A DNA stretch of 49,561 nucleotides from a virus: IMG/VR virus record IMGVR_UViG_3300045988_174153. One strand, 5' to 3'. Positions 19,546 to 19,702 of the stretch are shown here, piece after piece. A program made the translations under genes and the position numbers. The notes beneath the pieces were generated by a model. That model was not told where the DNA came from, did not search any database, and saw only the letters and a program-made list of their open reading frames with translations. Numbering within the stretch: position 1 is the stretch's first letter; every line of letters starts with the position of its first letter.

Positions 19546-19702
19546 GTAAGTTACTACTACGTAGCAGTAGGTTACGTTAGGGGAGTGTTACTTGGCGGTA
19601 AGTTACCCCGTGGTAGCTTACTTGGGTGTAGGTTCCGCTCGGGTAAGTTACGTGTACGTAGCTGAAATGAGGACCCCTTTGTCTTACCGTTCGGTAACCT
19701 AC
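19546..19702. promoter_or_regulatory. Iteron/operator-like array of the 9-mer GTARGTTAC
   Basis: GTAAGTTAC at 19546, 19598 and 19643. GTAGGTTAC at 19567 and, inverted, at 19694-19702. GTAGCTTAC at 19613. GTAGGTTCC at 19628. Three consecutive 15-bp spacings. Confidence 0.65.

Follow-up and report, generated by a model that had tools for sequence, protein, structure and literature searches.

A conserved array of YTAC-N6-GTAR dyads before the early rightward genes of an uncultured phage: a candidate multi-dimer operator

The noncoding region between the two gene arms of the phage genome described here contains an array of short repeats (19546-19702) that is in all probability a real control element, since many unrelated phages show the same site design, which also precedes lipid genes of bacteria. 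Its unit was originally described as the 9-mer GTARGTTAC but is better read as a dyad of the form YTAC-N6-GTAR, and dyads of this kind are found in the array and at a single distal site only. We suggest, with a probability of roughly 0.45, that both loci together could form a multi-dimer operator platform which brackets the early module and is bound by a host or phage protein.

Phage genome and location of the array

The window, i.e. the whole stretch of DNA that was analysed (49,561 bp), represents a circularly permuted complete phage genome of about 49.5 kb because the nrdD gene is interrupted by the window ends, with the N-terminal part encoded at 2-823 and the C-terminal part at 48539-49561, both on the minus strand. 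The leftward arm occupies the stretch between about 45.9 kb and 18.6 kb across the window ends and comprises the genes for NrdD/NrdG, a cytosine methylase, ThyA with an HNH insert, PolA, a 798-aa primase with DUF3987 and a DUF669 protein, and further those for an AAA_24 protein, a PD-(D/E)XK nuclease, an SF2 helicase, WhiB, dCTP deaminase and a P-loop kinase. The rightward arm starts at 19.7 kb with several small genes behind repeated sigma-70-like promoters. This early module is closed by a strong terminator, and downstream of it follow lysis genes, DHFR, a putative small terminase with a helix-turn-helix (HTH) domain, TerL and the structural genes. Both arms are separated by a noncoding region of about 1.1 kb in which the array is located.

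The presence of WhiB together with a GC content of about 59% points to an actinobacterial host, and the encoded NrdDG points to an anaerobic one. Neither an integrase nor a repressor was seen in the window, and the phage is apparently an uncultured lytic actinophage. Searches with 19100-20200 (megablast and blastn) gave no match among GenBank phages, and the nearest cultured phages show only 24-35% identity in their primase and helicase proteins. A search for the host within the genus of a metagenome-assembled genome (MAG) labelled Bifidobacterium, which covered 8 genomes only, yielded no meaningful match.

Copies, register and flanks of the array

Seven copies of GTARGTTAC with at most one mismatch are located within 157 bp (Table 1). 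All of them were found where the preliminary description had placed them, including the four that follow each other in exact 15-bp steps (starts at 19598, 19613, 19628 and 19643). Exact matches to GTARGTTAC occur five times in 49,561 bp, always within 19546-19702, compared with 0.31 +/- 0.58 expected, and since none of 100 shuffles reached five the motif is indeed more frequent than in shuffled sequence. With one mismatch allowed the whole window contains 13 copies versus 8.2 expected, which is not significant, and therefore the outliers at 1122 and 22449 are unsupported as 9-mers.

The position immediately upstream of the first rightward promoter was also described correctly: the array ends at 19702, i.e. 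38 bp before the -35 element at 19741 of P1, the best sigma-70-like promoter (38-48 bp overall), and thus does not overlap the promoter core. At the junction at 19703 the window is devoid of 10 bp (GGTGCCGTAT) which are present in all 20 relatives (see below) between the last repeat and the adjacent palindrome. As the missing 10 bp correspond to one helical turn, the phase between array and P1 is kept. This palindrome, TGTGGCGAAGGACACA, is presumably CRP/GlxR-like in view of the CRP consensus TGTGA-N6-TCACA, and the element recurs before P2 at 20434-20449. Within 20136-20265 two further sequences, TGTGAGCAATCTCACA (20193) and TGTGAGAAACATCACA (20233), fit TGTGA-N6-TCACA perfectly; the copies directly upstream of the -35 elements of P1 and P2 are weaker than these.

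The first P1-driven gene, a short acidic ORF, is followed by a perfect 13-bp hairpin at 19899-19926. On the other side of the array the noncoding block 19140-19560 is 89-98% identical across relatives, with the first leftward gene showing only 60-85% amino-acid identity, and this conserved block also contains a 38-nt inverted repeat (19245-19282 / 19315-19352). Rfam and tRNA scans of the region gave nothing above threshold, and a reading of the array at the RNA level was rejected because its copies lie in both orientations and form dyads.

Table 1. Features of the array, the early module and the terminase genes in the window, and examples of chromosomal loci
Feature	Position	Strand	Description
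Left flank of the array	19443-19535		two 30-nt direct repeats (CCCCGAAATTCGAAAA.GGCCCTCTTTGTA) and ACGTTTAATGACAACTTTTAC; 89-97% identity to relatives
Array as chain of YTAC-N6-GTAR dyads	19536-19702		exact dyads start at 19536, 19551, 19557, 19588, 19603, 19618, 19648, 19684
Degenerate dyad units in the array	19572-19585, 19633-19646		
GTAAGTTAC copies	19546, 19598, 19643		
GTAGGTTAC copies	19567, 19694		copy at 19694 inverted
GTAGCTTAC copy	19613		one mismatch
GTAGGTTCC copy	19628		one mismatch
CRP/GlxR-like palindrome TGTGGCGAAGGACACA	19715-19730		between array and -35 element of P1
P1, first rightward sigma-70-like promoter	19741-19769	+	TTGACA, 17-nt spacer, TAGAAT; 11/12 matches; kept in relatives
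28-aa acidic ORF	19809-19895	+	first P1-driven gene; synonymous changes in relatives
35-aa hydrophobic ORF	22365-22472	+	last codons (…S-Y-P-T-V-G-stop) carry the distal dyads
Distal double dyad	22454-22472		TTAC-CCTACG-GTAG overlapping CTAC-GGTAGG-GTAA; dyads start at 22454, 22459
Terminator-like hairpin	22498-22533	+	16 pairs, then T run; closes early rightward module
Putative TerS	27165-27794		HTH
TerL	27778-29331		
Chromosomal regulon, example loci (from L160-L279)	L171:4378, L251:1538, L211:3958		

The unit is a dyad

The 9-mer itself is almost palindromic (GTAA-G-TTAC). A scan of the whole window for YTAC-N6-GTAR gives 10 matches where 0.84 would be expected; eight fall in 19536-19697 and the other two at 22454-22472. 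Within a dyad the centres of the half-sites are 10 bp apart, and successive dyads follow each other at 15 bp. Three half-sites are located outside any full 9-mer (CTAC at 19536, GTAG at 19658 and TTAC at 19684), and because such stray terminal half-sites as well as a conserved 12-nt filler can be explained by dyads only, a chain of YTAC-N6-GTAR dyads describes the array better than a series of 9-mers does. This filler belongs to those units that are separated by 21 bp. These steps consist of two overlapping dyads with an offset of 6 bp (TTAC-TGCTAC-GTAG and CTAC-GTAGGT-GTAA), as is the case for the dyads starting at 19551 and 19557, and it is due to this overlap that conservation of the 12-nt filler equals that of the motif. 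A distance of one helical turn between half-sites is the geometry of an HTH dimer, and dimers placed at 15-bp steps would each be rotated by about 150 degrees.

Conservation in related phages

With the first leftward protein 21 related IMG/VR contigs were found (60-85% protein identity), of which 20 include the upstream DNA. All 20 possess the array, with 5-9 exact copies and 8-12 at one mismatch, and conservation in related genomes, one of the points raised in the preliminary description, is thus confirmed. In the alignment the motif columns are invariant, the spacers vary freely, whole units were gained or lost and occasional copies are flipped, with 87% of the copies sharing one orientation. 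The 193 copies present in the window and the 20 relatives provide 172 spacings between neighbours, 157 of which are exactly 15 or 21 bp, and the positions flanking the 9-mer carry almost no information. Mean column entropy in the 18 collinear relatives amounts to 0.10 bit for the motif versus 0.53 bit for the spacer (p = 3e-7). Because the motif columns are kept, the spacers free and the spacing strict, selection evidently acts on the array motif and its register and not on the overall sequence.

Outside the array no exact 9-mer was found in the loci of the 20 relatives (up to 12.5 kb), and a single stray copy exists across the five near-complete or complete relatives (CheckV 94-100%). The dyads are likewise confined to two loci per genome, namely the array and the distal site, both in these five relatives and in the 20 loci of up to 12.5 kb; one stray dyad in a single relative (L013) is the only exception to this rule.

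The distal site

The distal dyads are located about 25 bp upstream of the terminator and, in the window as well as in the relatives, 2.7-3.1 kb downstream of the array. A related sequence in a palindrome at 22449-22476 had been noted before, and it turned out to consist of two overlapping dyads. At least one dyad is kept in each of the 20 relatives even where the sequence has changed (CTACGGTACGGTAG), and in the relatives with CTACGGTACGGTAG the dyad positions are retained and the spacer is altered. The half-sites are supplied by rare codons, AGT representing 4% of the Ser codons and GTA 5% of the Val codons. That the copy at 22449 is plain coding sequence was rejected, as dyad scans show dyads only in the array and at the homologous distal site. 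Since 2 of the 10 dyads of the window (0.84 expected) fall there, the distal palindrome is a real relative of the array.

The distal dyads adjoin the terminator that closes the module, and hence it is supported in part that array and distal dyads bracket the early module from P1 to the terminator at 22498-22533. Of the earlier proposal that a dispersed operator set brackets the small genes, the bracketing is retained, with dyads found only at the array and the distal site; a dispersed set is not what was found, as there are just two loci. Related copies had also been claimed for both 67-bp elements, and this claim had to be given up. The corresponding string GGTAGGGT occurs at 19292, at 19987 (minus strand) and at 22463 (three versus 0.93 expected; 4 of 100 shuffles), which is marginal over chance, and the strings in the 67-bp elements were rejected as array members because they are not dyads and share only GTAGG (5 bases) with the motif.

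A further conserved element, GTTTCACGTGAAAC, is found at 22321-22334 just past the stop codon of a 211-aa acidic gene, with the distal dyads following after about 130 bp. It matches the central 14 bp of the parS consensus recognised by chromosomal ParB. It is present with one exact copy in each of the 20 relatives despite differing flanks and is separate from the GC hairpin that comes next in these relatives.

The same element in other viruses

When IMG/VR was scanned for pairs of 9-mers at a distance of 15 bp, 110 stretches were obtained, 25 of the phage family of the window and 85 outside of it. These 85 viral contigs possess 2-6 copies in the same strict 15-bp register and vary in GC content from 25 to 68%; many of them are actinophages because they encode WhiB. 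In about 27 contigs a divergent intergenic region of roughly 1 kb contains the array, 0.4-0.8 kb upstream of a TerL gene with fused TerS-like HTH. About 14 others have it placed between DUF3846-type small genes and the gene of a two-HTH protein, which is followed by the portal gene, and in about 8 temperate contigs 2-3 units are found 7-18 bp upstream of a tyrosine-integrase ORF and after an Xis-like gene. One contig (L091) has its array in front of a TerL that belongs to the TerL family of the window. According to BLASTP and profile searches WhiB is the only protein family common to the window and the 85 array-bearing contigs, and the Xis-like family is restricted to one group of them.

In Arthrobacter phage Amigo (L048:8808-8981, corresponding to NC_041949 52807-52980) a divergent intergenic region contains 8 TTGTAC copies at 10-11-bp spacing and also two TTCCAC..GTGGAA palindromes. 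Here the motif differs but the kind of place is alike.

Chromosomal operators of the same design

The same scan for two 9-mers 15 bp apart in bacterial genomes gave at least 120 stretches. Among the matches listed at least 80 or so are high-GC stretches, mostly from Actinobacteria and some from Myxococcota, and an AT-rich pattern like this in high-GC chromosomes cannot be chance. The sites are found at the 5' ends of desA3-like desaturase genes (at least 32 loci), of alpha/beta-hydrolase genes (at least 14 loci, including MAG contigs labelled Bifidobacterium breve and Actinomyces), of FA_desaturase genes (at least 9 loci) and of NMO-family genes (at least 9 loci, including Nanopelagicales). 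In about 18 loci among the matches listed a TetR_N/TetR_C_32 regulator adjoins the site, and in the myxobacterial loci the site overlaps a promoter of the form TTGACA-17-TAAGTT. At these sites a pair of full 9-mers regularly has a solitary TTAC ten bases to its left and a solitary GTA on its right, a pattern intelligible only with a functional unit that extends across the spacer.

In this way a small conserved regulon of Actinobacteria and Myxococcota became visible, which consists of 2-3 TTAC-G....C-GTAR dyads beside a FasR-like TetR gene (examples in Table 1). The regulator is 48-51% identical from Myxococcota to the genomes of Actinomyces, Nanopelagicales and Mycolicibacterium, and no clear orthologue is present in the Bifidobacterium-labelled MAG that carries the site. 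Its closest solved relative is FasR of M. tuberculosis (6O6N/6O6O/6O6P; E = 1.6e-22 for 6O6N/6O6P), an acyl-CoA-sensing TetR protein whose co-crystal DNA starts with TAC-CCGTAC-GTAG and whose recognition helices occupy successive major grooves (PMC7382501). Another TetR regulator, Rv1019, is reported to repress the desA3 operon via a 12-bp inverted repeat, the sequence of which is absent from the text of the preprint (10.1101/2022.04.26.489556).

The tandem operators of TetR proteins like FasR resemble the array in having dyad half-sites one helical turn apart, with TAC-N6-GTA(G) in the FasR co-crystal DNA (PMC7382501), and in the chromosomal operators beside TetR genes of the FasR (Rv3208) type the 9-mer and the 15-bp register are identical to those of the phage. 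The differences concern extent and position, as the chromosomal operators comprise 2-3 dyads, overlap promoters and show the G....C edges of the spacer, whereas the phage array comprises 8-12 dyads, is located upstream of the promoter and has no such edges. These edges are conserved in the chromosomal operators even in low-GC actinobacteria, but the arrays of the phage family show no G/C preference, and therefore the host TetR protein may not bind the phage array. Moreover, the same core is found upstream of an ATPase_2 gene in at least 26 low-GC loci of Bacteroidota, so that the core motif is not tied to one protein family.

Search for a binding protein

The preliminary description had recognised no DNA-binding regulator near the array, and this statement was borne out when about 50 phage ORFs were scanned against Pfam and PHROG, as no HTH regulators other than WhiB and the putative small terminase were found. 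The TetR profile matched neither in the window nor in the array-bearing viral loci outside the family; in this respect the phage differs from the chromosomal FasR-like loci. A MerR/Xis-like gene was not detected in the window either. The genes neighbouring the array have no recognisable function, and the primase/DUF3987 gene is located 12.5 kb away; a PDB sequence match for this primase was not obtained. The 180-aa product of the first leftward gene was rejected as binder, with no sequence match in Pfam, PHROG or PDB. Its AlphaFold model (22 sequences) has a pLDDT of 68 and gave no PDB fold match at E <= 0.001. A search of the literature on the 9-mer found nothing relevant.

Function of the array

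The reading as operator is based on the grammar of the array and on the chromosomal use of the same design as promoter operator next to TetR regulators, and a position typical of operators is also seen in the roughly 8 temperate contigs where the units lie 7-18 bp from integrase ORFs. Binding of a dimeric protein, regulation of transcription and looping at the array are what we infer from these properties. A row of HTH dimers might be bound side by side and spiral round the DNA. Its most likely role would be transcriptional control in rightward direction, by which early cassettes could be switched off, timed or insulated, and possibly also gating of the entry into the late genes for lysis and structural proteins. 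Looping between the array and the distal dyads is possible. The binder may be encoded by the phage and have escaped recognition, or it may be a FasR-like TetR regulator of the host. Several points speak against an operator: 8-12 sites exceed the need of simple repression, there is no overlap with P1, no regulator was found, and in about 40 other contigs the array heads packaging or structural genes.

Among phage systems the stoperators of cluster A mycobacteriophages are short dispersed repressor sites, 20-30 in number and spread through the genome. The array shares with them that phage operator sequences recur beyond the main promoter, but its dyads are found at two loci per genome only. Small MerR/Xis-like proteins of actinobacteria and their phages acting on direct-repeat operators are another model, represented by Gp36 of phage D29 (PMC12266134) and by BldC (PMC5859096). 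Their operators resemble the array in short repeats 13-19 nt apart, two loci, downstream repression and cooperative multimers on DNA; these repeats, however, are GC-rich (GCGGC) or AT-rich, direct and bound head to tail, whereas the unit of the array is a dyad.

An unlikely alternative is a replication origin, in which the repeats would serve as iterons for a phage initiator such as the 798-aa primase/DUF3987 helicase and the distal dyads as second cis site. In phage lambda (O iterons) and in satellite phage P4 (ori/crr, bound by the alpha primase-helicase) several close and partly palindromic repeats are likewise gathered in one noncoding region, and as in P4 there is a second distant site together with a large primase-helicase. 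That each genome has just one array and one distal site would suit this function, as would the variable copy number, which is known from iterons, and the location at the point where the arms diverge, roughly opposite to their convergence at about 45.7 kb on the circular map. An AT-rich island (about 18950-19080) exists in the same noncoding region, and in the distant relative Amigo short repeats likewise form an array between divergent genes. The island, however, is about 460 bp off and separated by a GC-rich block, the flanks 19400-19535 and 19703-19740 are not AT-rich, and no adjacent initiator gene is recognisable. Unlike in lambda and P4 the array is thus not accompanied by an adjacent AT-rich element and not placed within or beside a recognisable initiator gene. 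Its 15-bp register would bring neighbouring units onto nearly opposite faces of the helix, compared with the usual iteron phasing of 11 or 22 bp, and the element is also found at non-origin positions, i.e. directly upstream of integrase genes or at the head of packaging genes of other phages and, with 2-3 units, as promoter operator on chromosomes. Neither GC nor AT skew tells replication and transcription apart in this genome. The iteron interpretation of the preliminary description has therefore found no specific support, lacking both an adjacent AT-rich unwinding element and a recognisable initiator gene nearby. Transcriptional control or insulation fits better than an origin because the arrays head an arm, precede int or bracket the early module.

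It is quite unlikely that the array mimics the operator of a FasR-like, acyl-CoA-sensing TetR protein of the host and in this way acts as decoy or sensor. With equally low probability it would couple early and late expression to the lipid status of the host or titrate the regulator as the phage genomes multiply. This possibility is based on the identity of 9-mer and 15-bp register with the chromosomal operators, on the conservation of the regulator (48-51%) and on the numbers, since host genomes contain 1-3 such loci with 2-3 dyads each versus 9-13 dyads in one phage genome. Furthermore no phage regulator was found, and as WhiB is the only protein family detectably common to the array-bearing phages a host factor is favoured. 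Against it stand the chromosomal N6 edge bases missing in the phages, the Bifidobacterium-labelled MAG that has the site but no clear regulator orthologue, and the presence of the core motif in the unrelated Bacteroidota system.

Finally, a packaging site is very unlikely. Here a ring of small-terminase subunits would touch the repeats with its HTH domains and have the DNA wrapped around it, comparable to the R sites of lambda cosB or to SPP1-type pac boxes, which are repeated terminase-binding sites heading packaging genes as the array does in about 40 other contigs (27 or so upstream of TerL and about 14 before the two-HTH protein and portal; the TerL of L091 belongs to the family of that of the window). 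The co-orientation of 87% of the copies would agree with it, and so would their number, 8-12 copies matching typical sizes of small-terminase rings. Unlike cosB or pac sites the array is 7.5 kb away from the putative TerS and TerL genes in the phage family of the window, some arrays adjoin integrase genes, and dyad symmetry, terminal half-sites and flipped copies are more in keeping with dimers than with a ring. Nor is there an enrichment of contig ends close to the arrays (7 versus 4.0 expected within 150 bp and 22 versus 17.1 within 650 bp). The contig ends of the relatives were rejected as genome ends; they cluster at polymorphic sites, namely the ThyA HNH insertion (about 1.3 kb) and a (GTT)16 microsatellite (about 16.4 kb), and therefore represent assembly breaks.

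Significance

Expression control in uncultured, apparently lytic actinophages is essentially undescribed, and the array provides a clean and strongly conserved cis site for which the operator platform proposed above is the preferred reading. Its grammar is simple, with dyads in a 15-bp register at two loci per genome, and the site is suited as immediate bait for the binder. Should the array act as sensor of, or decoy for, a host regulator, which is rather improbable, many unrelated actinophages would carry multi-copy mimics of a FasR-like operator that sense the state of the membrane lipids or soak up the regulator, and in the latter case host desaturase and hydrolase genes would be derepressed. 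This would be a new kind of phage-host coupling. Alternatively, these phages would share a regulator family that sequence searches have missed.
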